DNA from: a virus
Lineage: Duplodnaviria; Heunggongvirae; Uroviricota; Caudoviricetes
DNA: 64,000 bases
IMG/VR virus record: IMGVR_UViG_2721755676_000001
Strand: one strand, 5' to 3'
Part shown: positions 1 to 62,333 of the stretch, piece after piece
How positions within the stretch are numbered: position 1 is the stretch's first letter
How the letters are laid out: every line of letters begins with the position of its first letter
Notes under the pieces: model-generated
What the model was told of the DNA's origin: nothing
What the model saw: the letters and a program-made list of their open reading frames with translations, nothing else
Databases searched by the model: none
Position numbers and translations under genes: made by a program

Positions 1-162
1 AAAGTCGGCGGGCGTCTTGTAGCAGTATTGCCGGGCACTGCGCCAATACTGGACTGGATGACGATGGATAATTACGTTTATGCCAGAGGGAAGTCGTTTA
101 CCAACGAGTTTGAAGACACAGGGATCACAGTCAGCGTATACGTTTTCAAACGCGTTAAATGA
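1..162 (+). CDS. hypothetical protein, C-terminal fragment (5' end outside window)
   Basis: Frame 1 is open from window start to TGA at 160-162; no recognisable motif. Confidence 0.25.
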   Translation, partial: KVGGRLVAVLPGTAPILDWMTMDNYVYARGKSFTNEFEDTGITVSVYVFKRVK

Positions 163-182
163 TAGGTAAATGCTTACTTAAT
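160..182 (+). promoter_or_regulatory. class II palindromic promoter-proximal element (TGATAGGTAA...CTTACTTAAT)
   Basis: Shares the 10-mer TGATAGGTAA with copies near 47806 and 57273; lies about 40 nt upstream of the start at 224. Confidence 0.4.
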
Positions 183-223
183 TTATGTAAGAATGTAGTT
201 ACTAAACGATAAGAGAAAAACAC

Positions 224-928
224 ATGAGCAACCTCCAGTTAGAGCATTTTAACGTCACAGGCCATTCCGATTTTCCTTTCAAGTTTACATTGAAAGGTTA
301 TGCAGAGGATGCGGTAGGCCAGATCATTATTGATAAAGGCATCGTTAAGTTTGAGGGGAATTTTGATGAATCCGCGAAAACATTCATAGACTTCGTTGCC
401 AAACGTTGGAGCGAGCAATGGAAAGACCTGGAAAAGCGCGCTAGTGAGTTTGATCGGTTCATGGATGCAATGGATACAGCAAAAGAGGCTCTTGCTGCCG
501 GGACTCCGTTAGATCTGGAGTCACTTTTCAACGGAGAAGTGGCCTCTGCGATGTTCGCCACCATGTTCGCGGGTGAGTTCGTCCGCAGCGGTGCCAAAAA
601 CTACCTTGAGCTGGATTACAACGTCCCTGCAATTGGCGATTTCGTCGTTACCATCCAACGCAAAGAAGGTAAGACGCCAGGTGAACGCGTCGCAGAGCTT
701 GAGGCCGTTGTGGATCAGCGTAACGGAGAGTGTGACCGTTTGATCAACGAGCTTCATGCACTTCGGGAAGAAAGAATATGCGCGGGTAGCAATACACGTA
801 ATGCAGCGGATATCTACTTCCAGTTAGTTGAGGAATGCCAGATTCCACCAGGCGGCTCTCTTGTCGATTACGTCAGACATTTAATGACGGAAGTTAACTC
901 CAGCCATAAAGATGGTGAGGTGCGCTGA
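224..928 (+). CDS. hypothetical protein (234 aa)
   Basis: Long ORF with ATG start preceded by a class II element; the 15-mer GAAAAACACATGAGC at its start recurs at 55195-55209. No recognisable domain. Confidence 0.55.
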   Translation: MSNLQLEHFNVTGHSDFPFKFTLKGYAEDAVGQIIIDKGIVKFEGNFDESAKTFIDFVAKRWSEQWKDLEKRASEFDRFMDAMDTAKEALAAGTPLDLESLFNGEVASAMFATMFAGEFVRSGAKNYLELDYNVPAIGDFVVTIQRKEGKTPGERVAELEAVVDQRNGECDRLINELHALREERICAGSNTRNAADIYFQLVEECQIPPGGSLVDYVRHLMTEVNSSHKDGEVR

Positions 929-1308
929 TGTTTGGCATTGATGCACAGCGTATAGCAGCTTTTGCAAAAAGCCCTCTTGATAATCCCTTGTCTCGTAGTG
1001 AGCAAATGGCGCTGGCAAGGCTTTTTCTTCACATTCAAAAACAGGCAGACATTTTCAATAACATGCCTAATCAACCTATTCTGGATGGTCACATCCAGAT
1101 GGTCATTAACAGTCATGAGAAAGGCTGGGCTGCAATCGTCCCCTGCACAATTACATACAAGTTGGCGAAAGAGGTTCAAGAGTTTCGTAAAGCCAGTGTC
1201 GAATCGGAGTCTACCAAAGCCGCAATAAACACTCTTATTCGCATGGGGTTCACATGGAACGGTGGAGCCTACTGGCAAGCACCTCACCCCATTTTATCCG
1301 GCAATTAG
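928..1308 (+). CDS. hypothetical protein (126 aa)
   Basis: ATGA stop-start overlap with the preceding gene; weak hairpin GGCCA..TGGCC downstream (about 1341-1357). Confidence 0.5.
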   Translation: MFGIDAQRIAAFAKSPLDNPLSRSEQMALARLFLHIQKQADIFNNMPNQPILDGHIQMVINSHEKGWAAIVPCTITYKLAKEVQEFRKASVESESTKAAINTLIRMGFTWNGGAYWQAPHPILSGN

Positions 1309-1363
1309 ACGCTACAAATCCTTCGGCATGAATAAATAAAGGCCATAAGTTGTGGCCTTAAAT

Positions 1364-1416
1364 AAATTGTTTTCTATCTTTTCTTATTTGTGAAAATAAC
1401 CACAACTAGAAAACAA
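1364..1416 (+). promoter_or_regulatory. class I promoter/operator unit
   Basis: TTGTTTTCT half-site, TGtGAAAAT extended -10-like (1389-1397), AGAAAACAA half-site 10 nt downstream; same architecture and near-identical sequence to units at 4982-5046 and 8915-8955. Confidence 0.45.
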
Positions 1417-1427
1417 CGGAGTTAAGA

Positions 1428-1475
1428 ATGTCTAGTATTTCCGAAGCTCATATGTTCGCCGCTGGCGCTCGGTGA
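1428..1475 (+). other. 15-codon micro-ORF (MSSISEAHMFAAGAR) between class I promoter and terminator
   Basis: ATG with GGAG 7 nt upstream; stops after 15 codons; may be a short transcript or remnant of a truncated early gene. Confidence 0.25.
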
Positions 1476-1572
1476 TGCTGCCAACTTACTGATTTAGTGT
1501 ATGATGGTGTTTTTGAGGTGCTCCAGTGGCTTCTGTTTCTATCAGCTGTCCCTCCTGTTCAGCTACTGACGG

Positions 1573-1605
1573 GGTGGTGCGTAACGGCAAAAGCACCACC
1601 TTTTT
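1573..1605 (+). terminator. intrinsic terminator, plus-strand only (GGTGGTGC..GCACCACC + TTTTT)
   Basis: 8-bp GC-rich stem followed by T5; ends 1 nt before the mrp stop codon. Confidence 0.55.
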
Positions 1606-1606
1606 A

Positions 1607-2707
1607 TCACACTGCGCGGAATGCGATTTCGCCAGGTATTACTTCACCTTGCCAATACATTTGGGCAGCAACGCGATCTGCGAGGTCACGATAAATAGCC
1701 GTAAATTCACTATCTGGACGACTAATAACGGTTGGTGTTCCGTTATCCAGATCTTCACGAAGAGAGATATGAAGTGGCATTTGGCCTAACAACTGCGTGT
1801 TGTATTTCTCGGCCAGTTTCTGTGCGCCACCGGTGCCAAAAATTGGCTCGTGATGACCGCAGTTACTGCAAATATGCACACTCATGTTTTCAACGATACC
1901 CAGTACCGGCACTTCGACTTTTTCGAACATCACAATGCCTTTCTTCGCATCGATCAGCGCGATGTCTTGCGGCGTAGTTACCACAACCGCACCAGTTACA
2001 GGAATGTTCTGCGCCAGCGTCAATTGAATATCACCAGTGCCCGGTGGCATATCGAGAACGAGATAGTCCAGATCAGGCCACAGTGTTTCCTGCAACATCT
2101 GCATCAGCGCCTTGCTGGCCATCGGTCCACGCCACACCATTGCATTGTCGTCGGTGACCAGATAACCAATAGAGTTGGTTGCCAGGCCATGAGACATGAT
2201 AGGTGCCATGTGAGTACCGTCCGGTGAGGTTGGACGTTGGTTTTCCGCGCCCAGCATGGTTGGAATTGATGGACCATAGATATCGGCATCCAAAATACCA
2301 ACTTTCGCACCTTCAGCAGCCAACGCCAGTGCCAGGTTTACCGCCGTGGAGGATTTACCCACGCCGCCCTTGCCTGAGCTGACGGCGATAATGTTCTTAA
2401 CGCCATTAATGCCTGGTTGGTTTTTGACGCGCTTAAGCGTGGCAATGTTGTACGACAGCTTCCAGTCAATAGCCTTTGCGCCAGTGATACGGAGCAGATC
2501 ACCACTACATTGCTCTTTCAGGTCTTCAAAAGGCTTATTCCACACGAAAGGCATGATTAGTTCGACATGCAGTGTGTCATCCATCAACGCAACATGGTGT
2601 AACGCTTTAAGCGTAGTCAGGTTGTGTTTCAGGGTTGGGTGCTGAAAATTAGCCAGCGTACCGGCTACCATTGCTCTCAGGGCATCCGGCGATTTGGACT
2701 CGCTCAT
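1607..2707 (-). CDS. apbC: iron-sulfur cluster carrier ATPase Mrp/ApbC
   Basis: 366 aa; P-loop [11 protein letters not shown]-terminal CSNCGHH; near-identical to enterobacterial Mrp as recalled. Confidence 0.95.
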
Positions 2708-2864
2708 CCCGTCTCCTTTATTTTAATTTGCGCAATTGTCGCCTTGTAGTGTACTCCAGCTACGACATTTAATCATTTATGAGAAATGCTGTTATCACAT
2801 GGCAGACATAAGGCCATTTTGTTACTATCAAGCCCCTTTTCACTACAAAGAAGTAATGCCTACT

Positions 2865-4898
2865 ATGACCCAAGTCGCGAAGAAAATTCTGGTGACGTGC
2901 GCGCTGCCGTACGCTAACGGCTCAATCCACCTCGGCCATATGCTGGAGCACATCCAGGCTGATGTCTGGGTTCGTTACCAGCGAATGCGCGGCCACGAGG
3001 TTAATTTCATCTGTGCCGACGATGCCCACGGTACGCCAATCATGCTGAAAGCACAGCAGCTTGGTATCACACCGGAACAGATGATTGGCGAAATGAGTCA
3101 GGAACATCAGACTGATTTCGCAGGCTTTAACATCAGCTATGACAACTATCACTCGACGCACAGCGAAGAGAACCGTCAGTTGTCCGAGCTTATCTATACT
3201 CGCCTGAAAGAGAACGGTTTTATTAAAAACCGCACCATCTCTCAGCTGTACGACCCGGAAAAAGGCATGTTCCTGCCGGACCGTTTTGTAAAAGGCACAT
3301 GCCCGAAATGTAAAGCGCCGGATCAATACGGCGATAACTGTGAAGTCTGCGGCGCGACATACAGCCCGACGGAACTGATCGAGCCGAAATCAGTGGTTTC
3401 TGGCGCTACACCGGTAATGCGTGATTCCGAACACTTCTTCTTTGATCTGCCTTCTTTCAGCGAAATGTTGCAGGCATGGACCCGCAGCGGTGCGTTGCAG
3501 GAGCAGGTGGCAAACAAAATGCAGGAGTGGTTTGAATCTGGCCTGCAACAGTGGGATATCTCCCGTGACGCACCTTACTTCGGTTTTGAAATTCCGAACG
3601 CACCGGGCAAATACTTCTACGTCTGGCTGGACGCGCCGATTGGCTACATGGGTTCCTTCAAGAATCTGTGCGACAAACGCGGCGACACTACCAGCTTCGA
3701 CGAATACTGGAAGAAAGACTCCACCGCCGAGCTGTACCACTTCATCGGCAAAGATATCGTTTACTTCCACAGCCTGTTCTGGCCTGCCATGCTGGAAGGC
3801 AGCAACTTCCGCAAGCCGACCAACCTGTTTGTTCACGGCTATGTGACGGTGAACGGCGCGAAGATGTCCAAGTCTCGCGGCACCTTTATTAAAGCCAGCA
3901 CCTGGCTGAATCATTTTGACGCCGACAGCCTGCGTTACTACTACACTGCGAAACTCTCTTCGCGCATTGATGATATCGATCTCAACCTGGAAGATTTCGT
4001 TCAGCGTGTGAATGCCGATATCGTTAACAAAGTGGTTAACCTGGCCTCCCGTAATGCAGGCTTTATCAACAAGCGTTTTGACGGCGTGCTGGCAAGCGAA
4101 CTGGCTGACCCGCAACTGTACAAAACCTTTACTGATGCCGCTGAAGTGATTGGCGAAGCATGGGAAAGCCGCGAATTTGGCAAAGCTATCCGTGAAATCA
4201 TGGCACTGGCTGACCTGGCTAACCGCTATGTTGATGAACAGGCTCCGTGGGTGGTGGCAAAGCAGGAAGGACGCGATGCCGATCTGCAGGCGATTTGCTC
4301 TATGGGCATTAACCTGTTCCGCGTGCTGATGACGTACCTGAAACCGGTACTGCCGAAACTGACTGAACGTGCAGAAGCATTCCTGAATACAGAACTGACC
4401 TGGGATGGTATCCAGCAACCGCTGCTGGGCCATAAAGTGAATCCGTTCAAGGCACTGTATAACCGCATCGATATGAAGCAGGTTGAAGCACTGGTGGAAG
4501 CATCCAAAGAAGAAGTGAAAGCCACAGCCGCACCGGTAACTGGCCCACTGGCTGACGACCCGATTCAGGAAACTATCACCTTTGACGACTTCGCCAAAGT
4601 TGACCTGCGCGTGGCGCTGATTGAAAACGCAGAGTTTGTAGAAGGTTCTGACAAACTGCTTCGCCTGACGCTGGATCTCGGTGGTGAAAAGCGTAATGTC
4701 TTCTCAGGCATCCGTTCCGCTTATCCAGATCCACAGGCACTGATTGGTCGTCACACCATTATGGTGGCTAACCTGGCACCACGTAAAATGCGCTTCGGTA
4801 TCTCTGAAGGCATGGTGATGGCTGCTGGCCCCGGCGGGAAAGATATCTTCCTGTTAAGCCCGGATGCTGGTGCTAAACCTGGCCACCAGGTTAAGTAA
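2865..4898 (+). CDS. metG: methionyl-tRNA synthetase
   Basis: 677 aa from the ATG at 2865 ([29 protein letters not shown] motif, KMSKS, zinc knuckle CPKC..C..C, C-terminal tRNA-binding domain); divergent from mrp as in E. coli-type chromosomes. Confidence 0.95.
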
Positions 4899-4920
4899 TT
4901 AAACAACCTCTCTTCGCAAT

Positions 4921-4946
4921 GCCCGGCAACACGCCGGGCATTTTCA
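4921..4946 (+). terminator. intrinsic terminator downstream of metG
   Basis: GCCCGGC aacac GCCGGGC followed by ATTTTCAT. Confidence 0.7.
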
Positions 4947-4981
4947 TATAGACACAACCCCTTCTGACTTTAACAAACTCT

Positions 4982-5046
4982 AAAACAATTTGTTTTCTAC
5001 CTTTTGTTGATTGAGATAATAAGTCATATAAGAAAACAAATTGTTT
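4982..5046 (+). promoter_or_regulatory. class I promoter/operator unit (two palindromes flanking an extended -10)
   Basis: AAAACAATTTGTTTT (4982-4996), tTGaGATAAT (5011-5020), AGAAAACAAATTGTTT (5031-5046) directly before SD AGGAG. Confidence 0.5.
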
Positions 5047-5051
5047 AGGAG

Positions 5052-5300
5052 ATGAAGATGTTTGGAACAGCAAAAGAAATCATCGAGAAACTGAAAAACT
5101 ATCCAGAAGACGAACCCTTACTCATGGTTATGTGGCACAAAGAAGATATTGCTGAAGTAAGGACAGATCTCACTGATGAACAATGCGTACAGGTGATGCA
5201 AAAAATCAGACAATGCCATAACGCTGATGTCGGCGTTAATTGGGAGGTTATATCAACTACGGCGAATGAGTTGTTTCCGAACGGGGTGGTAAAATGCTGA
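5052..5300 (+). CDS. hypothetical small protein (82 aa; start may be the ATG at 5058)
   Basis: ORF immediately downstream of a class I unit and SD. Confidence 0.5.
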   Translation: MKMFGTAKEIIEKLKNYPEDEPLLMVMWHKEDIAEVRTDLTDEQCVQVMQKIRQCHNADVGVNWEVISTTANELFPNGVVKC

Positions 5301-5594
5301 AACTCACCAAATTGTATAAGACGACAGTTAGTAGCCCTACCCTCGTTACACAGCATGACTCTGAGTGTCTACCAAATATCTGTTTCGAGCACCATACAAT
5401 CTCGGACTCAATTGGGTACAGAAACGGAGTATGGGGGAGTCAGGGGAGGGAAGAAAAGCTGCGTGATTACGGTGTCACATAGCAAACCATCAAGAACATT
5501 CGAAAGGTGCTCGATGTAGGATTTGATGCGGTACAATTCCACCCTGACGCTGAAATAGACGATGGTCTGGAAAATTGGAAATTGTGAGGGATAA

Positions 5595-5993
5595 ATGAAA
5601 TATGCACCATTGGCACTAATATTTTTTGTGCTTTCTGCTAATGCCACGCCAGTTGAAGAGCCTAACACTATCGTGTACCCACGATGCATGAAAATAGATC
5701 CGGAAACACACAAGCAATTACCTGGTTACAATATTGTTATGGATATAGGGAATAAATTTAAAATCGTTTCCCCAAATGGGAATTCGGTGATATCCATCTC
5801 GCTTGCCCAAAGTGAAAAAGATAGGAACATGTTCGACGCCTCAGTCGGCGATGTTTACTTCTCTCGTTACCATGTTCAACCTGATGGGAACTTTCTATAC
5901 TCAGCCTGGAGTGAAAAGGCGAAAGTTACAGTGCTGTGTAATGGTAAAAGCGGTGAGCGGCATTACGTTGACCCTATTCATTTCGAGAACTGA
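5595..5993 (+). CDS. hypothetical secreted protein (132 aa)
   Basis: N-terminal signal-peptide-like segment MKYAPLALIFFVLSANA; SD GAGGGA upstream. Confidence 0.55.
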   Translation: MKYAPLALIFFVLSANATPVEEPNTIVYPRCMKIDPETHKQLPGYNIVMDIGNKFKIVSPNGNSVISISLAQSEKDRNMFDASVGDVYFSRYHVQPDGNFLYSAWSEKAKVTVLCNGKSGERHYVDPIHFEN

Positions 5994-6122
5994 CTACACA
6001 AGTAAACAAATCAATCAGTTGATAATGGCGGTCACAATTTGATTCTTTTCTATAAGAATCCGTTGATCGCCACTACTCTTCTTCCATACCCGCAATCACA
6101 TCCTTAAATATCAATAAGTTAT

Positions 6123-7198: not shown

Positions 7199-7507
7199 TA
7201 CCGGCATAGCGAGAGGGAGAGTTGCGGCTACCCACCTGTAATGTGCGGGAAGAAGAGAGGCGCTCACGTAGGCGGACTTACTTACCGCTGGATTCCCTCT
7301 GAATGCCCAGCTACAGCGTAATTGTGCCAGACAGCCAACGGGTCACAATCGATTTCAGTAGGTTTTTGGGGAGAGGATTACTCTGCCACCAGCCACTTTC
7401 GGCCACTAAATCAGAATAATGTAAAAAGTGTACTCGGTACTGAACCTGAAAACTCACTGCCAAAACCACATTCACCGGAATAAAATCCTTTTTCGCCTGT
7501 GCGTTAT

Positions 7508-7542
7508 TGCGATAATAACACCATCAAGAAAACATGTTGTTT
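7508..7542 (+). promoter_or_regulatory. class I promoter/operator unit
   Basis: tTGcGATAAT (7507-7516), 10 nt spacer, AGAAAACATGTTGTTT (7527-7542), then SD AAGGA. Confidence 0.45.
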
Positions 7543-8914: not shown

Positions 8915-8955
8915 CGATAACAATTTGTTTTCTGCCTTATCTGATTTGTGAAAAT
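8915..8955 (+). promoter_or_regulatory. class I promoter/operator unit
   Basis: AACAATTTGTTTTCT plus TGtGAAAAT; near-identical to the unit at 1364-1397. Confidence 0.45.
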
Positions 8956-8989
8956 GATTTCACTGAAGCAACTTAATAAGGAAACCATC

Positions 8990-9661: not shown

Positions 9662-9693
9662 GATAATTAACACCAACAAGAAAACAATTTGTT
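9662..9693 (+). promoter_or_regulatory. class I promoter/operator unit
   Basis: GATAAT, about 10 nt spacer, AAGAAAACAATTTGTT, SD AAGGA. Confidence 0.4.
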
Positions 9694-9714
9694 ATTTACG
9701 ATAAGGAATTAATC

Positions 9715-11306: not shown

Positions 11307-11957
11307 TTACGCTTTGAAAGCATCAGCCAAATAATTGTAGAAATCATTCTTGATAAAGCGATATTGCTGTGTACCAGCTTTTGCGCTTCCCATTCCTTTG
11401 ACTTTCTCAACAAGTCCAAGACGTTCGCAAAGATTGATCAACTGGTTGGCTTGAGTATAGCCAGCGTCCAATTTAATTTCACACGCTTTTTTAGCTTCAT
11501 TCATTAAATCGAAAACAGCGCCATTGGTGAACGTGTCGATCTCGTCGTTAATCATATCGATTAAAGCGAATACACGAGATCCAGACATATCAGCGATGGA
11601 ATAAACGCATTTGCCAGATTTAATTGATTTAACCAGATAAACCAGTTTTTCCAGAGAATAACTATTAGTCATTGCATCACGGAAAAATACTTCTGGCGCT
11701 TGTTTGCTTGCTTTAATCGCATAGTAGAAAACAGAGCATAATTTTTCGTCTTCTACAGCGTTTACGACGTTGTTGATGAAGTAAGCAAGTTTAGTGGTAG
11801 CAGCTTGCATATTTGCTTTGTCTGCTTTGGTGTGCGTACCATTTTTATAATGTTCATTATATGTTTGAGTTGCCAGATCTGCTTTTTCGCGCAGTTCATC
11901 GGATACAATGGAAGCAGCTTCAACGATGGATTTTTTAGAAATGATAATGTTAGCCAT
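11307..11957 (-). CDS. hypothetical protein (216 aa), AT-rich
   Basis: Long ORF; C-terminal region (LINLCERLGLVEKV) is winged-helix-like; no firm family call. Confidence 0.5.
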   Translation of the reverse strand: MANIIISKKSIVEAASIVSDELREKADLATQTYNEHYKNGTHTKADKANMQAATTKLAYFINNVVNAVEDEKLCSVFYYAIKASKQAPEVFFRDAMTNSYSLEKLVYLVKSIKSGKCVYSIADMSGSRVFALIDMINDEIDTFTNGAVFDLMNEAKKACEIKLDAGYTQANQLINLCERLGLVEKVKGMGSAKAGTQQYRFIKNDFYNYLADAFKA

Positions 11958-16534: not shown

Positions 16535-16616
16535 AAACCTCTTTCCTTAGTGCCTTTTGTATGTTATTTGGCTATTATAATAAGTAAGTGATTACTTAAT
16601 GGATTGTAGCAATAAA

Positions 16617-19814: not shown

Positions 19815-19869
19815 CCTGCTTCTGTATATATAAATAATAAGTAACTTATTAAATATATACGGAAGCAGG
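19815..19869. repeat. 55-bp near-perfect palindrome (copy A)
   Basis: CCTGCTTCTGTATATATAAATAATAAGT|AACTTATTAAATATATACGGAAGCAGG; second copy at 52829-52881; outer inverted repeat GGTCTGG/CCAGACC. Confidence 0.7.
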
Positions 19870-19905
19870 CTTCGTAAGACATGCCAGACCTAATTAAACA
19901 CCCCA

Positions 19906-21900: not shown

Positions 21901-23475
21901 ATGGAATTGAACGACAAACAAATTAAGGATCTGGTGGCGCGACGCCACCCGGAATACGAAAAGAAAAAAGAACATTGGGACTTCCTCGCCAGCACTTACG
22001 CTGGCGGGCGTGGTTGGTTTACAGACAATATCTTTCGTTACTTTAAAGAGGGAGATCAGGAGTTTAAGGAGCGTGTTGAGCGTGCCTATCGCTTCAACCA
22101 CACTCGTGAGGTGGTAAACCTCATCAACAAATATCTCTTTAAAGAAGACATTCATAGAAATATCGAAGAGGCACCAGAGCAGATCCGCAATTTCTGGAAA
22201 CGTGCGACTCGCCAGAATGCCTCTATTGACTCATTTATGGCCGCCATTGATTTGCAGTCGTCTATTTACGGTCGCATATGGGTTGTTGTCGATAGCACGA
22301 TGAGTGGTGATGTTGAGTCAGTAGCTGACGAGAAAAAGAAAGATGCTCGCGCCTACGCCTACTGGATTTCACCTCAGCAAATGCTGGATGTGGCATGGGA
22401 CGACGACGGGAATATGTTATGGGCGTTAATTGTGGAAGTCGCTCGCGATGACGCAGACCCTTTTACTTCTACAGGTCAGGAATACCAACGTTATCGTCTG
22501 TGGACACAAAACGAGTGGTATCTGTTCCGTGAGGAAGTGAAGAAGGGGGCTGGTGGAGCAGGTCGTCGTCAGGCAAAAGTTATTTTAGAGGACAGCGGTG
22601 AGCATAATCTCGGCGTAGTTCCTGTGTTTCCTGTTGATTGTATTGGAGAAAGTGAATCACCGTATTTCAGCCCATCGTTGATCGATGATATCGCTTATCT
22701 TGATCGTGCGGTTGCAAACTATCTGTCAAACCTTGATGCCATTATTCAGGATCAGACATTTAGCCAGTTGGCTATACCGGTACAGTCGCTTTTACCTGGT
22801 GATGAAAACCACACTAAAGTGCTTGAAATGGGCACAAAGCGAGTCTTCACCTACGATTCTGAAGGTGGAAACCAGCCGTTTTATCTGTCACCAGACCCGA
22901 AACAAGCTCAGATGATCATCACTACGATTAAGACGGTGATTAACGAAATCTACCATTCAGTTGGTGTAGCTGGTGAGCGAACGAAGCAGGACAACGCACA
23001 GGGAATCGATAATTCATCTGGTGCCGCAAAAATGTATGACTTCCAGCGTGTAAATAGCTTGCTTGTCACAAAAGCAGAGCGTCTGGAAAGGGCTGAACGC
23101 CAAATCATGCTACTGGTTGCGAAATGGATGGGGGTAGATCTGGACGAAGACCACTCTTTAATTGCGTATCCAGAAAGTTTCGATATTCGTGGCCTTACTG
23201 ATGAATTTTCTGTTGCCGAGAAACTGTCATTACTTCAGGCACCGGACTCTGTACGTCGTCACCAGATGGAAATGCTTATTGAGAAGATTTTCCCGAACAT
23301 TACTGAGGCGATGAAAAAGGAATTTGATAAAGATCTCTTGAATTTTCCTCCAAAAAATGATCTAAATACCCTTGAAAATAAGTCAGTACTTACTTATGAT
23401 CGTGGTGCAGCCCAAGAAAGCGGGCAAGATCAACCCCGAGGGAATGGGGACTCATCTACTCAAGAGAACGAGTGA
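21901..23475 (+). CDS. portal protein
   Basis: 524 aa, position after terminase, acidic C-terminus; class II element and SD upstream. Confidence 0.7.
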   Translation: MELNDKQIKDLVARRHPEYEKKKEHWDFLASTYAGGRGWFTDNIFRYFKEGDQEFKERVERAYRFNHTREVVNLINKYLFKEDIHRNIEEAPEQIRNFWKRATRQNASIDSFMAAIDLQSSIYGRIWVVVDSTMSGDVESVADEKKKDARAYAYWISPQQMLDVAWDDDGNMLWALIVEVARDDADPFTSTGQEYQRYRLWTQNEWYLFREEVKKGAGGAGRRQAKVILEDSGEHNLGVVPVFPVDCIGESESPYFSPSLIDDIAYLDRAVANYLSNLDAIIQDQTFSQLAIPVQSLLPGDENHTKVLEMGTKRVFTYDSEGGNQPFYLSPDPKQAQMIITTIKTVINEIYHSVGVAGERTKQDNAQGIDNSSGAAKMYDFQRVNSLLVTKAERLERAERQIMLLVAKWMGVDLDEDHSLIAYPESFDIRGLTDEFSVAEKLSLLQAPDSVRRHQMEMLIEKIFPNITEAMKKEFDKDLLNFPPKNDLNTLENKSVLTYDRGAAQESGQDQPRGNGDSSTQENE

Positions 23476-25358: not shown

Positions 25359-26279
25359 ATGCCAGAACAAAAGATGAAGATTACGGAAGAGGCATTTTCG
25401 GATTTTACGGGGCATATGTGCCGCGCCGGATTTACCAATTCTATCTCCGATGAACCTTTAACCGAGCGGCAACAAAGTCAGCTATCTGCTTGTTTGCAGG
25501 CGGTTCCCTTCTCCCAATCCGTAAACATAACTCCGGCTTCACCATCAGTTTTGGTTGGGAAAACTGTTCAACTTAGTGCAGGTATTAGTATGGGTAAGAG
25601 TGCCAGTTCATTCACCTGGAAGTCAGCCAATGATCAAATTGCAACCGTTAACGGCACTGGATTAGTAACTGGCGTAGCCCCAGGCAAAGTAAAAATTACT
25701 GCAACTGATCAGGAAACCCAGCTTTCCGCTTCAGTGGAAGTCACCGTAAATCCGGTAGCCGTTCAATCCGTAACGGTAACGCCAGAATCAACGTCTGTTG
25801 AGAAAGGGAAATCAGTCAGTCTGAAAGCGAATGTTCAGCCGTCAAATGCGACGAATAAGGCTGTTACCTGGTCTTCCAAAAATGAAGATAAGGCAACGGT
25901 AGACCAGAGCGGGAACGTAACTGGTGTAGAAGTTGGCACTGCGACGATTGAGATCGTTTCCCAAGATGGTAGCAAAAAGGCAACTGCAACGGTGGAAGTA
26001 ACTGCGCCTGTTGTGGCTGTTACAGGCGTCGAAATCGACCCAAATAGCACAACCGTTGAGGCAAACAAAACTGTTCAGCTGACCGCAAATGTCGAGCCGG
26101 CAGGAGCCACAAATAAAACCGTTACTTGGGAATCCAAAAATACCGAGTTTGCAACGGTGGACAGCGAAACCGGTGTTGTAACTGGTGTTGCGGCTGGCAC
26201 TGCCACAATCGAGGTTACTACCCAAGATGGTAGCCACAAAGCGACAGCGACCGTAGAGGTCACTGCCGCACAGGAATAA
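25359..26279 (+). CDS. Ig-like (Big_2-type) domain protein, probable head decoration
   Basis: Three repeats of the pattern VTV.P.S..V..GK.V.L.A.V.P..ATNK.VTW.S...ATVD..G.VTGV..G.ATI. Confidence 0.65.
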   Translation: MPEQKMKITEEAFSDFTGHMCRAGFTNSISDEPLTERQQSQLSACLQAVPFSQSVNITPASPSVLVGKTVQLSAGISMGKSASSFTWKSANDQIATVNGTGLVTGVAPGKVKITATDQETQLSASVEVTVNPVAVQSVTVTPESTSVEKGKSVSLKANVQPSNATNKAVTWSSKNEDKATVDQSGNVTGVEVGTATIEIVSQDGSKKATATVEVTAPVVAVTGVEIDPNSTTVEANKTVQLTANVEPAGATNKTVTWESKNTEFATVDSETGVVTGVAAGTATIEVTTQDGSHKATATVEVTAAQE

Positions 26280-42250: not shown

Positions 42251-42343
42251 TGGTGGAAAAAAAATTTTATATCGGTAAAAATAGGTAAGTATCTACTTAA
42301 TAGCGGGCAAGGATAGCCCGCCAAATCAAGGAGCATATTCAAC

Positions 42344-45300
42344 ATGTGGTACAGGGAAGGTACTATCACATTTACACAGGGCAGCAATACTCTGGTTGGG
42401 GCAGGGACAGCCTGGAACGTAACAGCTAATGGTGTGTTGCCGGGGATGATCGTCATTGGCCCCGACAATAAGCTGTATGAGATCAAGCGCGTAACCAGTG
42501 ATACGAACATTGTTCTCTCAGAACCTTATACCGGCGAAACTCAGTCTGAAGTTCCGTGCCGAATCATTACGACCTATGAAGGCGACTTAACACAGTTTAG
42601 CGCGCGCTTTACTGCGCTAATGTCGCGTATGTCGGCTGATTCCAAGTCCATACGCAGTTGGTTGACTGCGCTGGATGAGGTGACAATCGAGCGTGAAGAC
42701 GGTACAGAAGTGACCGTTAAGCCGCTAATGCAGATCGCCAACGAGCACAACGAAAACGTTGAGTGGTATAAAAATAACACTGACGCGATTGATGCTGCTG
42801 GCGACAAAGCTCGTGAGGCGGCGGCCAGTGCTGCCGCAGCAGCAAAAAGCGCCAATGCCGCTGGAGAAAAAGCCTCTCAAGCGTCTCAAAGTGCATCCGC
42901 TGCGGCATCCTCACAAAGTGCCGCAAGTGCGAGTGCAACTGCTGCGAAAAAATCTGAAACGAATGCTGCAGCGTCACAAAAATCTGCAGCCACTTCTGCA
43001 TCCACCGCGACCACGAAGGCGTCAGAAGCTGCCACCTCAGCCCGGGATGCGGCGGCCTCAAAAGAGGCAGCGAAATCATCAGAAACGAACGCATCCTCAA
43101 GCGCCAGTAGTGCCGCTTCCTCGGCAACGGCGGCAGGAAATTCCGCGAAGGCGGCAAAAACGTCCGAGACGAACGCCAGGTCTTCTGAAACGGCAGCGGG
43201 ACAGAGCGCCTCAGCTGCGGCAGGCTCAAAAACAGCGGCTGCGTCGTCTGCCAGTGCCGCGTCAACAAGTGCCGGGCAGGCCTCAGCCAGTGCCACCGCC
43301 GCCGGAAAATCGGCAGAAAGTGCCGCATCGTCTGCTTCAACAGCCACAACGAAGGCTGGCGAAGCCACTGAACAGGCCAGCGCAGCAGCGAGGTCTGCTT
43401 CCGCAGCGAAGACATCCGAAACGAACGCGAAAGCGTCGGAAACCAGCGCAGAATCCTCAAAAACGGCTGCCGCATCGTCCGCCAGTTCGGCGGCGTCATC
43501 GGCATCATCGGCGTCTGCTTCAAAAGATGAGGCGACCAGACAGGCGTCAGCAGCGAAGGGCAGCGCCACGACGGCATCCACGAAAGCAACAGAGGCGGCA
43601 GGCAGTGCGACGGCAGCATCTCAGAGCAAAACTGCTGCTGAATCCGCTGCGACTCGTGCGGAAGCTGCTGCTGATCGTGCTGAAGAGATTGCCGGTGCAG
43701 TTGCGATGGAAGACGCAAGCCTTACAACTAAAGGTGTTGTGAAACTTAGCAGTGCTGTCGACAGCACCAGTGAATCGCTGGCCGCAACGCCAAAAGCAGT
43801 TAAAGCAGCCAATGACAATGCGAATAGCAGGGTGCCATCTAACCGAAAAGTTAACGGTAAAGCACTGACTGCGGATATCAAATTAACGCCGAAAGATATT
43901 GGTACTTTAAATTCAGTAACGATGTCTTTCTCTGGCGGGGCAGGGTGGTTCAAACTGGCTACGGTTACCATGCCACAAGCGAGTTCCATCGTTTACATCG
44001 CATTGATTGGTGGCGCTGGTTACAACGTCGGCTCCCCACATCAGGCAGGCATTTCAGAACTGGTTCTACGAGCAGGCAATGGAAACCCCAAAGGGATTAC
44101 AGGTGCTTTGTGGAAGCGTACAGCTGTCGGATTAACGAATTTCGCCTGGATCAACACATCCGGCGATACATATGATATTTACGTTGAGATTGGCAATTAT
44201 GCGACTCGTGTAAATATCCATTGGGATTGTACTGCAAATGCGACAGTTTCTATTTATACCTCGCCAACATATTCAGCGAGTAAGCCTTCCAGCGTTACCG
44301 ATGGTGTTGTTTATACGATGTATAGCACACATCAGAAACCGACGCCGTTAGATATTGGAGCACTGCCAACAACCGGAGGAACAGTTTCAGGTCCGTTGTC
44401 TGTTACAGGTGGATTAACTGGTTCATTGAATGGTAATGCAAGTACAGCCACGAAATTGCAGACGGCAAGATCTATCGGTGGAGTTGTTTTCGACGGTTCT
44501 GCAAATATTAACCTTCCAGGTGTAAACACTACGGGTAATCAGAACACCACTGGTAATGCTGCAACTGCTACAAAACTTCAGACTGCAAGAAAAATATCCG
44601 GTGTTCCATTTGATGGTTCTACTGATATCACTTTAACCGCTGCGCATGTTGCCGCTTTCGCAAGAAGGGCAACAGGGTCATATGCGGATGCTGATGGTGG
44701 CGTGCCGTGGAATGCTGAATCTGGTGCTTACAATGTAACTAGAACAGGCGACAGTTATATTCTTGCCAACTTTTATACCGGTGTAGGTAGTTGCCGGACC
44801 CTGCAGATGAAGGCGCATTACAGAAATGGAGGTCTGTTCTACCGTTCCTCAAGAGATGGCTATGGTTTTGAAAGTGGTTGGGAGCAGGTTTACACGACTG
44901 GATTTATGCCTCAGCCGGCTGATATAAACGCGCCAACCGCTGCCGCTGGATGGTTAAATAGTGGTAACGGAACGGCATTTACGACTGCTCAATTTATAAC
45001 TTGGCTAAATAATCAGGGGGCATTTACAAACAAACATTGGATCGCACGGTGCTCATGGGCTTACGCCAACAATAATTATATAGACGACACTGGTTGCGGT
45101 AGGATCGATCTATCTGGTTCCGTGATTGAGGTGTTTAGTAATAAGGCAACAAGCCACTACACTATTCGTGTTACAACGACAACAACATCGGGTCATGGTG
45201 GTGTTAACAATGCGGAATTTATTTATGTGTACAATGGAAGTGATTATGCACCAGGCTGGCGTCGTTCTTATAACACTAGAAACAAACCAACAGCTTCTGA

Positions 45301-46642
45301 TGTAGGAGCATTATCGCTTTCTGGAGGAGCGTTAACTGGCGGATTAACTGCTGCTGGCGAGATTATTTCAAAATCGGCGAATGGTCTGCGCATTGCCTAC
45401 GGAAACTACGGATTCTTTATCCGAAACGATGGTTCAAGCACATACTTCATGTTGACCGATTCGGGTAACAGCCTGGGAACCTATAATAGTTTAAGGCCGC
45501 TTATCATTAACAATGCCAATGGTGCTGTTAGGATCGGTAATGGACTCAATGTTACTGGCGGCATCAATGGTAGTTTGAACGGTAATGCTTCAACAGCTAC
45601 GAAGTTGCAAACAGCGAGAAACATCAATGGTGTTAAGTTTGATGGTTCAGGCGATATCAACATTAATACATTGGTATCTCGTGGCCGAGTTACGGCGTTA
45701 AGCGGCTCTACTCAAGGCACTGCTGGCATTCAAATGTATGAGGCGTACAACAATAGCTACCCGACCACGTATGGCAACGTATTGCACATGAAAGGTGCGA
45801 GTGCTGCTGGTGAGGGCGAGTTGCTTATTGGCTGGAGTGGTACGAGCGGTGCACATGCGCCAGTTTTCATTCGCTCACGAAGAGATAACACAGGTGCAGC
45901 ATGGTCAGCGTGGGCGCAGGTATATACCGCTAAGGATTCAATCCCTGGTGTGAATACAACTGGTAATCAGAACACTACTGGTAATGCCGCAACCGCCACA
46001 AAATTGCAGACAGCAAGGAAAATTGCTGGTGTGGCGTTTGATGGCTCTGCCGATATAACTTTGACTGCGGCTAACCTTAATGCTTACACGAAAACAGAGG
46101 TAGCAAACCTTCTAAGCTCCTATGCAAGCAGATCATCACTGACAGGCTATAGTGGCAACCTGGATATTGTTGCTGAAACACTGGTTGTCAAATCAGGCGG
46201 TAGTGGAGGGTTTGCTATATGGGATATTGGCACAACTACTAGCGGTGCCAATATGTACATTGATCCAAACCCAGGTATCAATACAGTTTGGCGTTCAACG
46301 TCTTCAAGGCGCTATAAAAAGGATATTGAAACATTACAAGATCGATATGCTGATGAACTTTTGTCATTAAGACCTGTTTGGTATCGTTCAATTTGTCGAG
46401 GTGACCGAAAGGATTGGGGGTATTACGGCCTTATTGCTGAAGAGGTTGGTGAGATTGCCCCGCAATATGTCCATTGGCGTGAACCAACAAATAATGATTC
46501 TCCAGAAGATATTTCCTCAAATGGTATGGTCGCTGAAGGAGTGATGTATGAGCGTTTGGTTGTACCACTCATTCATCATATTCAGCAATTGACCAAAAGG
46601 GTTGAGGAGCTTGAAACGAAGTTAAATTCACCTAAAGAATAA
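42344..46642 (+). CDS. side tail fibre protein with C-terminal intramolecular-chaperone (peptidase S74-like) domain
   Basis: Ala/Ser-rich low-complexity region, three GNASTATKLQTAR..GV.FDGS fibre repeats, C-terminal DIVAE...RRYKKDIE...GLIAEEV segment. Confidence 0.8.
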   Translation: MWYREGTITFTQGSNTLVGAGTAWNVTANGVLPGMIVIGPDNKLYEIKRVTSDTNIVLSEPYTGETQSEVPCRIITTYEGDLTQFSARFTALMSRMSADSKSIRSWLTALDEVTIEREDGTEVTVKPLMQIANEHNENVEWYKNNTDAIDAAGDKAREAAASAAAAAKSANAAGEKASQASQSASAAASSQSAASASATAAKKSETNAAASQKSAATSASTATTKASEAATSARDAAASKEAAKSSETNASSSASSAASSATAAGNSAKAAKTSETNARSSETAAGQSASAAAGSKTAAASSASAASTSAGQASASATAAGKSAESAASSASTATTKAGEATEQASAAARSASAAKTSETNAKASETSAESSKTAAASSASSAASSASSASASKDEATRQASAAKGSATTASTKATEAAGSATAASQSKTAAESAATRAEAAADRAEEIAGAVAMEDASLTTKGVVKLSSAVDSTSESLAATPKAVKAANDNANSRVPSNRKVNGKALTADIKLTPKDIGTLNSVTMSFSGGAGWFKLATVTMPQASSIVYIALIGGAGYNVGSPHQAGISELVLRAGNGNPKGITGALWKRTAVGLTNFAWINTSGDTYDIYVEIGNYATRVNIHWDCTANATVSIYTSPTYSASKPSSVTDGVVYTMYSTHQKPTPLDIGALPTTGGTVSGPLSVTGGLTGSLNGNASTATKLQTARSIGGVVFDGSANINLPGVNTTGNQNTTGNAATATKLQTARKISGVPFDGSTDITLTAAHVAAFARRATGSYADADGGVPWNAESGAYNVTRTGDSYILANFYTGVGSCRTLQMKAHYRNGGLFYRSSRDGYGFESGWEQVYTTGFMPQPADINAPTAAAGWLNSGNGTAFTTAQFITWLNNQGAFTNKHWIARCSWAYANNNYIDDTGCGRIDLSGSVIEVFSNKATSHYTIRVTTTTTSGHGGVNNAEFIYVYNGSDYAPGWRRSYNTRNKPTASDVGALSLSGGALTGGLTAAGEIISKSANGLRIAYGNYGFFIRNDGSSTYFMLTDSGNSLGTYNSLRPLIINNANGAVRIGNGLNVTGGINGSLNGNASTATKLQTARNINGVKFDGSGDININTLVSRGRVTALSGSTQGTAGIQMYEAYNNSYPTTYGNVLHMKGASAAGEGELLIGWSGTSGAHAPVFIRSRRDNTGAAWSAWAQVYTAKDSIPGVNTTGNQNTTGNAATATKLQTARKIAGVAFDGSADITLTAANLNAYTKTEVANLLSSYASRSSLTGYSGNLDIVAETLVVKSGGSGGFAIWDIGTTTSGANMYIDPNPGINTVWRSTSSRRYKKDIETLQDRYADELLSLRPVWYRSICRGDRKDWGYYGLIAEEVGEIAPQYVHWREPTNNDSPEDISSNGMVAEGVMYERLVVPLIHHIQQLTKRVEELETKLNSPKE

Positions 46643-47572: not shown

Positions 47573-47806
47573 ATGATGAAAAGATTATTTCTAACAATAG
47601 CTGTTGTTCTCTCTCTTACTGGCTGCCAGAAATTGCCGACACCTATATGTTATGGTGAAGCTATCATTGGTGGACAGGAGACAGTCATACCCATATATGC
47701 TGTTAAAAAAGTGAACGACTATACCTTATACAAAGCGGGTAGCATCTATAACTGGCGATGGGTTGGAGTAGGTGCTTTCTCATCAATCGGTTGCAATGCT
47801 GAATGA
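47573..47806 (+). CDS. small lipoprotein (77 aa), candidate superinfection-exclusion factor
   Basis: Signal peptide with lipobox LTGC, directly downstream of the fibre genes. Confidence 0.6.
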   Translation: MMKRLFLTIAVVLSLTGCQKLPTPICYGEAIIGGQETVIPIYAVKKVNDYTLYKAGSIYNWRWVGVGAFSSIGCNAE

Positions 47807-47875
47807 TAGGTAAGTACACACCTACAACAAAAGGGTGAAATGTGATATAAATCCGCCATCCCGATTTGACTTTTC

Positions 47876-50741: not shown

Positions 50742-50810
50742 GTTATTAAGCCCCCCCTATGTACCTATCATTAAACCTTTACACCGCAGCCGTAGGCATT
50801 TAGGCTATAT

Positions 50811-50834
50811 CACATATAAGAAAACAAGTTGTTT
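50811..50834 (+). promoter_or_regulatory. class I operator upstream of parA (CATATAAGAAAACAAGTTGTTT)
   Basis: Same TATAAGAAAACAA junction as at 5025-5046. Confidence 0.45.
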
Positions 50835-50869
50835 CAGACGATAATTATATACGCAAAGGGAACTCTCCA

Positions 50870-52828: not shown

Positions 52829-52881
52829 CCTGCTTCTGTATATAAATAATAAGTAACTTATTAAATATATACGGAAGCAGG
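52829..52881. repeat. 53-bp near-perfect palindrome (copy B)
   Basis: Same sequence as 19815-19869 minus 2 bp; lies in the divergent region before the replication module. Confidence 0.7.
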
Positions 52882-52988
52882 TCTTTTAAAAGACACCACC
52901 AGAACAACTCCCTTCCGTTTCCACTTCCAAAAACTGCCACCAGTCGCTATCATCCGCTCATTGTGATAAGTAAGTAACTACCAACTAG

Positions 52989-53738
52989 GTGAGCCACATG
53001 AGCCAAATCTTTTTCGATACCATCGACAACGACCAGTACGACTTCATGACAGAGTGGAATACCGCTGTTATGGACAAGTGGGTCGCTGAAAACATTGGTT
53101 TGTCGCGCTGTAAAGACGAGGCTGAACTCTTCGAGACGAAGTGGTTTGATTACCGCGACATGCATCCTCTCATGGCCACCTGTCTTTTTACGGAGGCATA
53201 CAAACGTCAGTACTCAAATATCATGCTGACGCACGGTCGCGAACACTTTGAAACAGCTCCGTTCACCACCGGGTTAAAACGCCTGCCTTATCAGGAGTTG
53301 TCGACTGCCAATAAAACGTCGCTATGGAAAGCACGCCAGTTTGCGGATCGCTATTGCTGCTCATACGACTACTTTATCTCCACCGTTCTTTCCGCAGCTG
53401 CACGACGGCTGTGGGACAAGCTGCCGCGCCCACAGCATTTATGGCAGCCAGAACTGATTGAGATATTTGAAGAGAAATTAGCCAGACGCGCAACAACCCG
53501 TCTGGATGACTCTCTGGTTAGCTTTAAGCATATGGGAGACATGCAGTTCAACCCGATTCAGGAAAGCTATTTTGAGTGGATTCTGGAGCGTTTGCGCACC
53601 ATCCCTCGCAGCAAGCGCATACGCGCAATTTTCTCCGCTATCTGGCTAATGGAAATCGTTCCAGAGCGCCTTATTTCCGCCCACTTTCCAGAAGAACTGG
53701 AAGAAGCACGGCGGTTTATTGATCCCCTATCTAATTAA
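52989..53738 (+). CDS. hypothetical replication-associated protein (start GTG 52989 or ATG 52998)
   Basis: First gene of the replication operon; class II element TGATAAGTAAGTAA upstream; no NTP-binding motif. Confidence 0.45.
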   Translation: MSHMSQIFFDTIDNDQYDFMTEWNTAVMDKWVAENIGLSRCKDEAELFETKWFDYRDMHPLMATCLFTEAYKRQYSNIMLTHGREHFETAPFTTGLKRLPYQELSTANKTSLWKARQFADRYCCSYDYFISTVLSAAARRLWDKLPRPQHLWQPELIEIFEEKLARRATTRLDDSLVSFKHMGDMQFNPIQESYFEWILERLRTIPRSKRIRAIFSAIWLMEIVPERLISAHFPEELEEARRFIDPLSN

Positions 53739-53746
53739 CTAATACT

Positions 53747-53762
53747 AGAAAACAATTTGTTT
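53747..53762 (+). promoter_or_regulatory. class I operator (AGAAAACAATTTGTTT) upstream of the helicase gene
   Basis: Perfect palindrome 19 nt before the ATG. Confidence 0.45.
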
Positions 53763-53781
53763 AAAAAACAAAGGAAAGCAC

Positions 53782-56385: not shown

Positions 56386-56460
56386 CAATCACCTTTAAAA
56401 TAAGTAGATGATTACTTATCTTTCTGTGAGAATACTTTCATCTGTTAGCTAGGAGTTGGT

Positions 56461-59748: not shown

Positions 59749-60138
59749 AAACATATTGATAAGTATTTACTTACTTATCTTTTATGTATAAGATGACTTT
59801 GTTTTCGTTGAGACGCGACTGTTTGAACTTAAATACAAGTGCAAACGAAGAAGTCTATCTGGCAGTAGCCTAATAAGCCAAACACCAGCGAGGTCAGTTT
59901 CCAGCCTCGTTACCGAAATGGGACACACTGAGCGAGTGTGATTGCAGAACGCAGGAGGGAACATGAATGTTCCCTCCGATGAAGTAACAGAATGGGCGGT
60001 TGGTATATTTTCAACTCCATATGACTCCCGGATTCTTAGCCACTGACCGCCCATCCTGTTACGTCATTTTGTTCAATTATGTCGTTTATACTGGGTTAAA
60101 AAGCGGCGACGTAGCCCGGCTGGTATGGTTAGCCAGCA

Positions 60139-60526: not shown

Positions 60527-60601
60527 GATGGTGTAGCTCAGCGGTAGAGCAGTTGGCTGTTAACCAACTGGTCGGTGGTTCGAATCCACCCACCATCGCC
60601 A
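60527..60601 (+). tRNA. tRNA-Asn (anticodon GTT)
   Basis: Canonical cloverleaf with T-loop TTCGAAT and 3' CCA; sequence differs from chromosomal E. coli tRNA-Asn as recalled. Confidence 0.9.
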
Positions 60602-60606
60602 ATTTA

Positions 60607-60693
60607 GGGGAGTTAGTCCGTAGGGGCAGCGGAGTAGACTGTAAATCTACTGTCATGGCGACTCGGGTGGTTCGACTCCATCACTCCCCACCA
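60607..60693 (+). tRNA. tRNA-Tyr (anticodon GTA)
   Basis: Class II tRNA with long variable arm, anticodon loop CTGTAAA, 3' CCA. Confidence 0.85.
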
Positions 60694-60697
60694 AATT

Positions 60698-60773
60698 GCC
60701 GGTTTAGCTCAGTTGGTAGAGCGCCTGCCTTGTAAGCAGGATGTCAGCGGTTCGAGTCCGCTAACCGGCACCA
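60698..60773 (+). tRNA. tRNA-Thr (anticodon TGT)
   Basis: Perfect cloverleaf with anticodon loop CTTGTAA, T-loop TTCGAGT, 3' CCA. Confidence 0.9.
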
Positions 60774-60845
60774 ATACAACGATAAGATCATTACGGTTAA
60801 TCGTCGTTCATGTGCACAATGACTGGTCGAAAGGTAGTGATCTTA

Positions 60846-60995
60846 CCGTTGTGGTGGATTCGCAGACTGATGCGATAGCTTTCTTGGATGTTAGGGAAAT
60901 GCGGCCGCAAATCTTCCCTTTCGCGAGCGGTGATCGTCCGTAGTCCTAATTGGCTGCACCGTATGCCGGAGATTCAGTACCGGCCACCACAACGG
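60846..60995 (+). ncRNA. structured RNA-like element between tRNA-Thr and tRNA-Ser (function unknown)
   Basis: 12-bp closing stem CCGTTGTGGTGG/CCACCACAACGG around internal hairpins; ends 2 nt before tRNA-Ser; no canonical tRNA fold. Confidence 0.3.
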
Positions 60996-60997
60996 CC

Positions 60998-61084
60998 GGA
61001 GAGTAGGGAGCATGGTGCTCAAGCGGTCTTGAAAACCGTCCCATTGCGCAAGCGATGATGGTTCGATTCCATTACTCTCCGCCA
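60998..61084 (+). tRNA. tRNA-Ser (anticodon TGA)
   Basis: Class II tRNA with 3-bp D stem, long variable arm, anticodon loop CTTGAAA, 3' CCA. Confidence 0.85.
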
Positions 61085-62158: not shown

Positions 62159-62333
62159 CTAAACCTCTACGAAAATCTTACCTATAAGACAGTCCTTAAT
62201 GTAATCTGTTTTCTCCACTACTTCAAATTACCTCACAATCTATTGATAGGTGACTACCTACTTACATACAAAGTTGATTTATAGTATAGTCCCTCTGTTG
62301 CGTATTAGTATTTTAAAAGGCATCTGTTAAGTT

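Follow-up and report, generated by a model that had tools for sequence, protein, structure and literature searches.

The stretch of DNA analysed here (the window, 64,000 nt) very probably carries, in and around positions 1364-1605, the scar left by an IS1 insertion in an HD-domain gene and by a deletion that ran from inside IS1 into a native terminator, and no purpose-built small RNA. The original prediction had read this region as a promoter, a micro-ORF and an intrinsic terminator convergent with mrp (apbC), specifying either a regulatory small RNA of roughly 200 nt or the stump of an early gene truncated when a host segment was joined. Sequence comparison traced each piece to its source, located the breakpoints exactly and showed that carrier plasmids share them. 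The scar is partly known already, because RefSeq annotates an incomplete IS1 in identical plasmids ("IS1 family transposase, incomplete", a pseudogene at 1526-1600 with its C-terminus missing).

By sequence similarity, the window belongs to the SSU5/Cyrano type of E. coli phage-plasmids. Its first 12 kb align at 95-97% identity over ~90% of their length with the Escherichia phages Cyrano, PhiR41_1 and CMS-2020a, which are SSU5-like phage-plasmids, and more distantly with Salmonella phage SSU5. Virion formation and induction by genotoxic stress have been reported for Cyrano (PMC9928086). Region 1300-1700 is found at full length and 99-100% identity in ~110-kb plasmids of 7 of the 5,426 complete E. 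coli genomes, and one further plasmid in PLSDB brings the number of carriers to eight; among them, pM160133_p3 (NZ_CP022167.1) matches the first 6,666 bases of the window base for base. The isolates with these eight plasmids came from humans, pig, chicken and giant panda, and from the USA, the UK and China. Both the left and the right junction are base-identical in all inspected carriers (four scar plasmids and the window), which points to one event and its later spread. The range of the scar lineage across hosts and countries shows that the scar is tolerated; neutrality is a separate matter. The coordinates of the features are collected in Table 1.

Table 1. Features of the scar and its surroundings, in window coordinates unless a related plasmid is named.
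Feature	Position	Strand	Remarks
Hairpin AAGGCCATAAGTTGTGGCCTT	1339..1359		3' of upstream gene (928-1308); scan: terminator-like on - strand
Repeated promoter/operator-like unit	1357..1416	+	Repeat family D2; same place in L002, L003 and p09EL50
Shine-Dalgarno GGAG	1418..1421	+	6 nt before ATG 1428; identical in L003
5' stump of HD_4 (RelA/SpoT-type HD) phosphohydrolase gene	1428..1470	+	Codons 1-14 + 1 nt
15-codon micro-ORF MSSISEAHMFAAGAR*	1428..1475	+	Last codon C|GG and TGA stop from first IS1 bases
IS1 fragment, nt 1-127 of 768	1471..1597	+	IRL, promoter region, insA codons 1-24
Promoter-like site CTGCCA-16-TATGAT	1478..1505	+	Called by generic sigma-70 scan; in/overlapping IRL
insA stump, GTG start and codons 1-24	1526..1597	+	Open frame runs on to 1789, antisense to apbC
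Chimeric hairpin and T-run	1573..1605	+	Left arm/loop from insA; right arm/T-run from native terminator
Deletion junction GCACC, 5-nt microhomology	1593..1597	+	Common to IS1 nt 123-127 and right arm of native terminator
Native-terminator remainder ACC + TTTTT + A	1598..1606	+	3' of S24-peptidase gene in relatives
apbC (mrp)	1607..2707	-	Convergent with scar; first gene of host-derived apbC-metG module
Hairpin-plus-promoter unit copies in relatives	L002 6040-6110; L003 6040-6100, 11335-11395

The Shine-Dalgarno sequence and the 15-codon ORF of the original prediction are both present where it placed them, and its suggestion that the ORF is the stump of an early gene was borne out by the comparison with intact relatives that it had proposed. 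By length alone, a 15-codon ORF is trivial by chance; its reality lies in its identity to a gene start in relatives. In plasmid L003 (NZ_CP027369.1), our reference for the intact gene block, a 213-aa gene comes after the same promoter unit, with its start where the micro-ORF starts in the window, and its product matches Pfam HD_4 (E = 1.4e-18, residues 8-135); SSU5 records name this gene metal-dependent phosphohydrolase or putative guanosine polyphosphate pyrophosphohydrolase. Positions 6129-6171 of L003 are identical to the window from the start codon onward, so that the first 14 codons are those of the HD gene, and the identity stops exactly at 1470, where IS1 begins (left-junction k-mer GCTGGCGCTCGGTGATGCTGCC). 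The window peptide MSSISEAHMFAAGAR* departs from its L003 counterpart MSSISEAHMFAAGAHGG… at a hybrid Arg codon (C|GG), which is followed by a TGA supplied by IS1. The HD domain (Pfam PF13328 / PF01966) is not encoded in the window, and since residues 1-14 alone are retained, the HD gene of the window is a pseudogene stump.

What follows the stump had been overlooked in the earlier reading of the region: positions 1471-1597 match the left (IRL) end of K-12 IS1A from its first base (127/127 identity). The exact IRL match at 1471-1493 is the sole one in the window, with 0 expected in shuffles; no second IR match, and hence neither IRR nor another IS1 end, was found on either window strand. The identity to IS1A stops at nt 127, past which a complete IS1 continues with …GCACCGCCGGACATC…. 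Missing from the window are insB, a complete insA and the A6C frameshift site, with insA codons 1-24 alone remaining, and a fragment this incomplete is incapable of transposition and of InsA production. Only the left junction of the original IS1 insertion is left to view as regards a target-site duplication, the right one having been deleted. The weak, InsA-repressed IS1 promoter PIS1 is reported to overlap IRL in part (PMC12428005), and the promoter-like site at 1478-1505 is probably this promoter. From the insA start, an open chimeric frame (1526-1789) joins InsA residues 1-24, with the first zinc-finger CxxC, to 63 residues antisense to apbC, among which a second CxxC (HCAEC) arises by chance; expression of this frame is unlikely because it crosses the hairpin described below.

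That hairpin is a composite. Its left arm GGTGGTGC (1573-1580) and its 12-nt loop (1581-1592) are insA coding sequence, and its right arm GCACCACC (1593-1600) and the TTTTT (1601-1605) are the remains of a native terminator; a single A then stands between the T-run and the stop codon of apbC, which is read from the opposite strand (1607-1609). The fold is stable (-17.5 kcal/mol, z = -3.4), with an 8-bp stem (10 with G-U pairs), and the T-run adjoins the stem on the + strand only. In relatives, the native terminator GGTGGTGC-aat-GCACCACC-TTTTT lies between an S24 peptidase gene and apbC; the spacer sequence of L002 and L003 reads AGGTGGTGC-aat-GCACCACCT-TTTT, and in L003 this hairpin, whose stem has 9 bp and whose loop has 3 nt, is called by the scan as a terminator on the + strand. 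The S24-family (UmuD/HumD-like) peptidase gene is convergent with apbC in L002, L003, p09EL50 and Cyrano. IS1 insA itself contains GGTGGTGC, then 12 nt, then GCACCGCC, which form a natural hairpin, so that joining IS1 and the native terminator at GCACC rebuilt a perfect 8-bp stem. The hairpin has not evolved for termination, given that its left arm codes for part of InsA. The original prediction of a plus-strand-specific intrinsic terminator ending 1 nt before the mrp stop thus holds for the position and for the T-run on the + strand, but the generic terminator scan, which allows loops of 3-8 nt, did not call the chimeric hairpin with its 12 nt. The longer loop may lower termination efficiency.

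At the right breakpoint, identity to IS1 read forward extends to 1597 and identity to L003 read backward extends to 1593, an overlap of 5 nt. The bases from 1593 (GCACCACCTTTTTATCA…) are identical to native L003 sequence, with a right flank of 250/250. Relative to L003, 5,731 bp are missing (L003 6172-11902). This stretch takes in 11 genes: the rest of the HD gene at one end, the S24 peptidase gene at the other and, between them, nine more (ead/Ea22-like, ClpX-type zinc finger, DUF551, toprim and hypotheticals). The junction partners share a second 8-mer, GGTGGTGC, adjacent to the 5-nt identity, and each of them forms a hairpin.

The simplest history that accounts for these observations is the following. 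In the ancestor, the repeated early-type promoter/operator unit would have driven an accessory block that ran from the HD_4 phosphohydrolase gene to the S24 peptidase gene and ended at the native intrinsic terminator, tail-to-tail with apbC; the gene content of the direct ancestor was probably of this kind, judged from mosaic relatives with L003 as the reference. IS1 would have inserted after HD codon 14, insA being oriented like the HD gene. The deletion that followed would have fused two copies of GCACC, one at IS1 nt 123-127 and the other in the native terminator's right arm, taking with it IS1 nt 128-768 and the 5,731 bp of element DNA with its 11 genes (as counted against L003). As GGTGGTGC of IS1 lies 12 nt upstream of GCACC, the fusion would have produced an 8-bp hairpin whose 12-nt loop replaced the 3-nt one and which kept the native T-run. 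We infer the order of the two steps, insertion and then deletion, because the 5,426 complete E. coli genomes and PLSDB yielded no plasmid in which a whole IS1 interrupts the HD gene; their only long matches were the scar plasmids. Microhomology-mediated illegitimate recombination is the probable mechanism of the deletion, possibly aided by the two similar hairpins, since the breakpoint is internal to IS1 and falls in a short identity beside a second shared 8-mer.

Other routes to the same scar deserve weighing. IS1 has a well-established capacity to delete neighbouring DNA and was certainly present at the site, so that either its transposase, by adjacent deletion, or homologous recombination between two IS1 copies might have removed the block. 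However, transposase-mediated adjacent deletions begin at the end of the IS and leave it whole, whereas here the breakpoint lies at IS1 nt 123-127, in a 5-nt identity next to the shared 8-mer; we therefore rejected adjacent deletion as the main mechanism. Recombination between two copies sits poorly with the lack of IS1 sequence to the right of the junction and of another IS1 end in the window, and most carrier plasmids have IS1 at one place per record. Taken together, a deletion by either of these routes is very unlikely. IS elements are also common sites of misassembly, which raises the question of whether IS1 reads were fused to plasmid reads by an assembly or chimeric-read artefact. The chance of this is vanishingly small: eight complete carriers were sequenced independently, in different laboratories and from different hosts and countries, the inspected junctions are base-identical, and on the agreement of these eight assemblies the artefact was rejected.

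Capture of the host apbC-metG segment was the cause of truncation named in the original prediction, with the stump marking the capture junction. The host-derived module (apbC, or mrp, and metG) occupies 1607-4898 on the phage-plasmid. The stop codon, only ~10 nt away from the hairpin, is where homology to chromosomal apbC (K-12) begins, and the hairpin has no counterpart at the chromosomal loci examined, so that a real module boundary does lie here. Downstream of mrp, K-12 lacks the GGTGGTGC hairpin; an exact match to it was not found in any of 185,579 species-representative genomes, and the 80 closest chromosomal apbC loci have no similar hairpin, having a different one of their own. Import of the hairpin with the host segment was accordingly rejected on its absence at K-12 and these 80 loci. 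Yet in relatives with the full HD-to-S24 block, the junction with this same apbC-metG module is identical (250/250 at the apbC end), which indicates that the capture preceded the truncation and left the block intact, and the truncating sequence is IS1 rather than host DNA flanking apbC. Truncation at capture is therefore extremely improbable, and the claim gives way to IS1 insertion followed by deletion. As for the source of the module, no single apbC donor species stands out among the species representatives: the best chromosomal ApbC relatives are all at ~95% protein identity and are spread across Escherichia, Citrobacter, Salmonella and Enterobacter. In alignment with K-12, the 3' end of apbC is clearly diverged. 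The Cyrano homologue of apbC, CYRAN_99, is listed at 9-fold in a lysogeny expression table (PMC9928086).

Upstream of the stump, the region begins with a unit that recurs in the window. The unit at 1357-1416 consists of a half-palindrome AAATTGTTTTCT, an extended -10-like TGtGAAAAT (1389-1397) and a half-site AGAAAACAA (1408-1416), and belongs to repeat family D2, an intergenic sequence of ~60 nt with four copies (at 1357, 4980, 7476 and 8915) to which families D5 and D10 are related. Units of this kind lie at 1357-1416, 4980-5046, 7476-7542, 8915-8974, 9668-9704, 50798-50844 and 53736-53772. Aligned, the copies show a common extended -10-like core, TTGnGA(A/T)AATAA, between AAACAAnTTGTTT palindromes, which are candidate operator sites; the TGtGAAAAT at 1389-1397 aligns with TGaGATAAT and TGcGATAAT of other copies. 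A strict regular expression for the unit matches twice in the window and not once in 50 shuffles, and every copy sits upstream of a + strand ORF; in relatives, the unit is located upstream of the HD gene.

The "class I promoter unit" of the original prediction (1364-1416) is thus a genuine recurrent unit, but a consensus scan for sigma-70 -35/-10 hexamers at 16-18 nt spacing made no + strand call in 1364-1416, and the generic scan found 4 promoter-like matches in the region against 4.6 expected from shuffles. Because of the missing + strand call, we infer promoter function from recurrence and position. The flanking palindromes suggest that the unit would be repressed in the plasmid state. As indirect evidence, CYRAN_93-98, which lie under the corresponding unit of Cyrano, are absent from the table of genes expressed above local background in lysogeny (PMC9928086). 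Just before the unit, the hairpin at 1339-1359 has a T-rich tail on the - strand, and L003 has a similar hairpin ahead of its second promoter-unit copy. Transcripts of apbC could read through the scar because the chimeric hairpin has no T-run on the - strand, and the hairpin at 1339-1359 may end them.

A dedicated small-RNA or micropeptide gene, with co-evolved promoter, 15-codon ORF and terminator and with a ~200-nt product regulating apbC or the element, has the appearance of the region in its favour: a Shine-Dalgarno sequence and a start codon follow a plausible promoter unit and precede a stable hairpin with T-run, which is the correct order, and the transcript would complement apbC 3' read-through, the hairpin being without a T-run on the - strand. 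Its parts are nevertheless of unrelated origins, namely a gene stump, an IS1 end and half of another gene's terminator; they are confined to one lineage with identical junctions, and ordinary genes occupy the locus in the other relatives examined. An Rfam search of window positions 1-6000 (E <= 1) gave no match, and the predicted transcript (1404-1608) folds no better than shuffles (z = -0.40). Moreover, 127 of the ~240 nt match sequence unrelated to the element, the kind of match that the original prediction had itself named as speaking against it. A regulatory small RNA is thus highly improbable as an account of the region, and we retain the scar as its explanation. Should the unit fire, it would plausibly give a by-product RNA of ~200 nt that ends at the chimeric hairpin and probably has no selected function, and translation of the HD stump could yield a 15-aa peptide. 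A speculative variant, to which we give hardly any weight, is that the fusion was co-opted: an induced ~200-nt chimeric RNA would alter apbC-metG expression, or IRL DNA would titrate InsA, and either might aid spread. Such an RNA could comprise the HD leader, the IS1 IRL, the 5' end of insA and the rebuilt hairpin, and would pair with apbC 3' read-through.

The block between the promoter unit and apbC is mosaic among relatives. The HD gene lies next to the unit in only 35 of 156 related E. coli plasmids, and in most of the others sampled, homology to L003 is lost just after GAAAATAAC inside the unit (query positions 101-103), so the unit also looks like a mosaic or recombination junction. Plasmid p09EL50 has a different first gene after the unit. 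In the pNT1F31-113kb lineage, the HD-to-toprim genes, which make up most of the block, were lost independently, evidently by recombination between two hairpin-plus-promoter-unit copies; the S24 peptidase gene was kept and now lies directly under the upstream unit. Loss in two lineages and mosaicism elsewhere argue that the block is dispensable for plasmid persistence and that its borders are prone to recombination. In L003, a LexA-box-like palindrome (TACTGTATAAATGAACAGTA, 11454-11473) stands just upstream of the S24 (UmuD/HumD-like) peptidase gene, and the window lineage has lost both.

Several other features of the window were recorded. A palindrome-like ATAAGTA-N-TACTTA (families D3, D7 and D17) is dispersed at 157-180, 16575-16598, 19832-19855, 23373-23396, 42276-42299 and 47802-47824, with further copies at 52844-52867, 52961-52984, 56395-56418, 59755-59777 and 62242-62264, and may be another promoter/operator class. 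Repeat D11, a 60-nt direct repeat with 87% identity between copies 33 kb apart (19827-19886 and 52839-52898), contains the TAAGTAACTTATTA palindrome and, after it, a hairpin-like GGAAGCAGGC…. Direct repeats within coding sequence, namely four 79-nt copies with a 151-nt pair at 44432-46094 and an 89-nt pair at 25917-26266, look like repeated protein domains, perhaps of tail-fibre or Ig-like type. Four tRNA genes are clustered on the + strand at 60527-61084 (Asn-GTT, Tyr-GTA, Thr-TGT and Ser-TGA).

For annotation, the 15-codon ORF should be treated as a pseudogene stump, and the scar accounts for the absence of the HD-to-S24 block, including the S24 gene with its LexA-box-like sequence; these ~5.7 kb of early/accessory region are not needed for persistence as plasmids. 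More generally, a tidy promoter/ORF/terminator layout can arise by accident, as here, where half of the "terminator" is transposase coding sequence. The region offers a small, clean case of a deletion that joined a site inside an IS to a terminator hairpin through a 5-nt microhomology, and it is mildly notable that insA codons and half of a native terminator came together by chance as a terminator-like hairpin.

Compared with IS1 (IS1A/IS1E consensus, K-12), the window keeps the element from IRL through insA codon 24, including the reported promoter region, and the HD gene is interrupted exactly as by IS insertion; the complete element, however, is 768 nt against 127 nt here, where IRR, a complete insA, insB and the frameshift site are lacking. 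Like deletions between short direct repeats, which often occur at hairpins, the junction falls in a 5-nt identity (GCACC) whose partners form hairpins, with the mechanism read from the junction sequence alone. Like Rho-independent terminators, the hairpin of the window has a G+C-rich stem of 8-10 bp followed directly by TTTTT, on the + strand only, and its right half belongs to a scan-recognised terminator in relatives, whereas its loop has 12 nt and the native loop 3 nt. Finally, the window shares its upstream genes, the promoter unit and the apbC-metG module with the SSU5-like phage-plasmids (SSU5, Cyrano and p09EL50), and it differs in that the HD-to-S24 block, present in relatives that retain it in full, is absent in its entirety from the window lineage.
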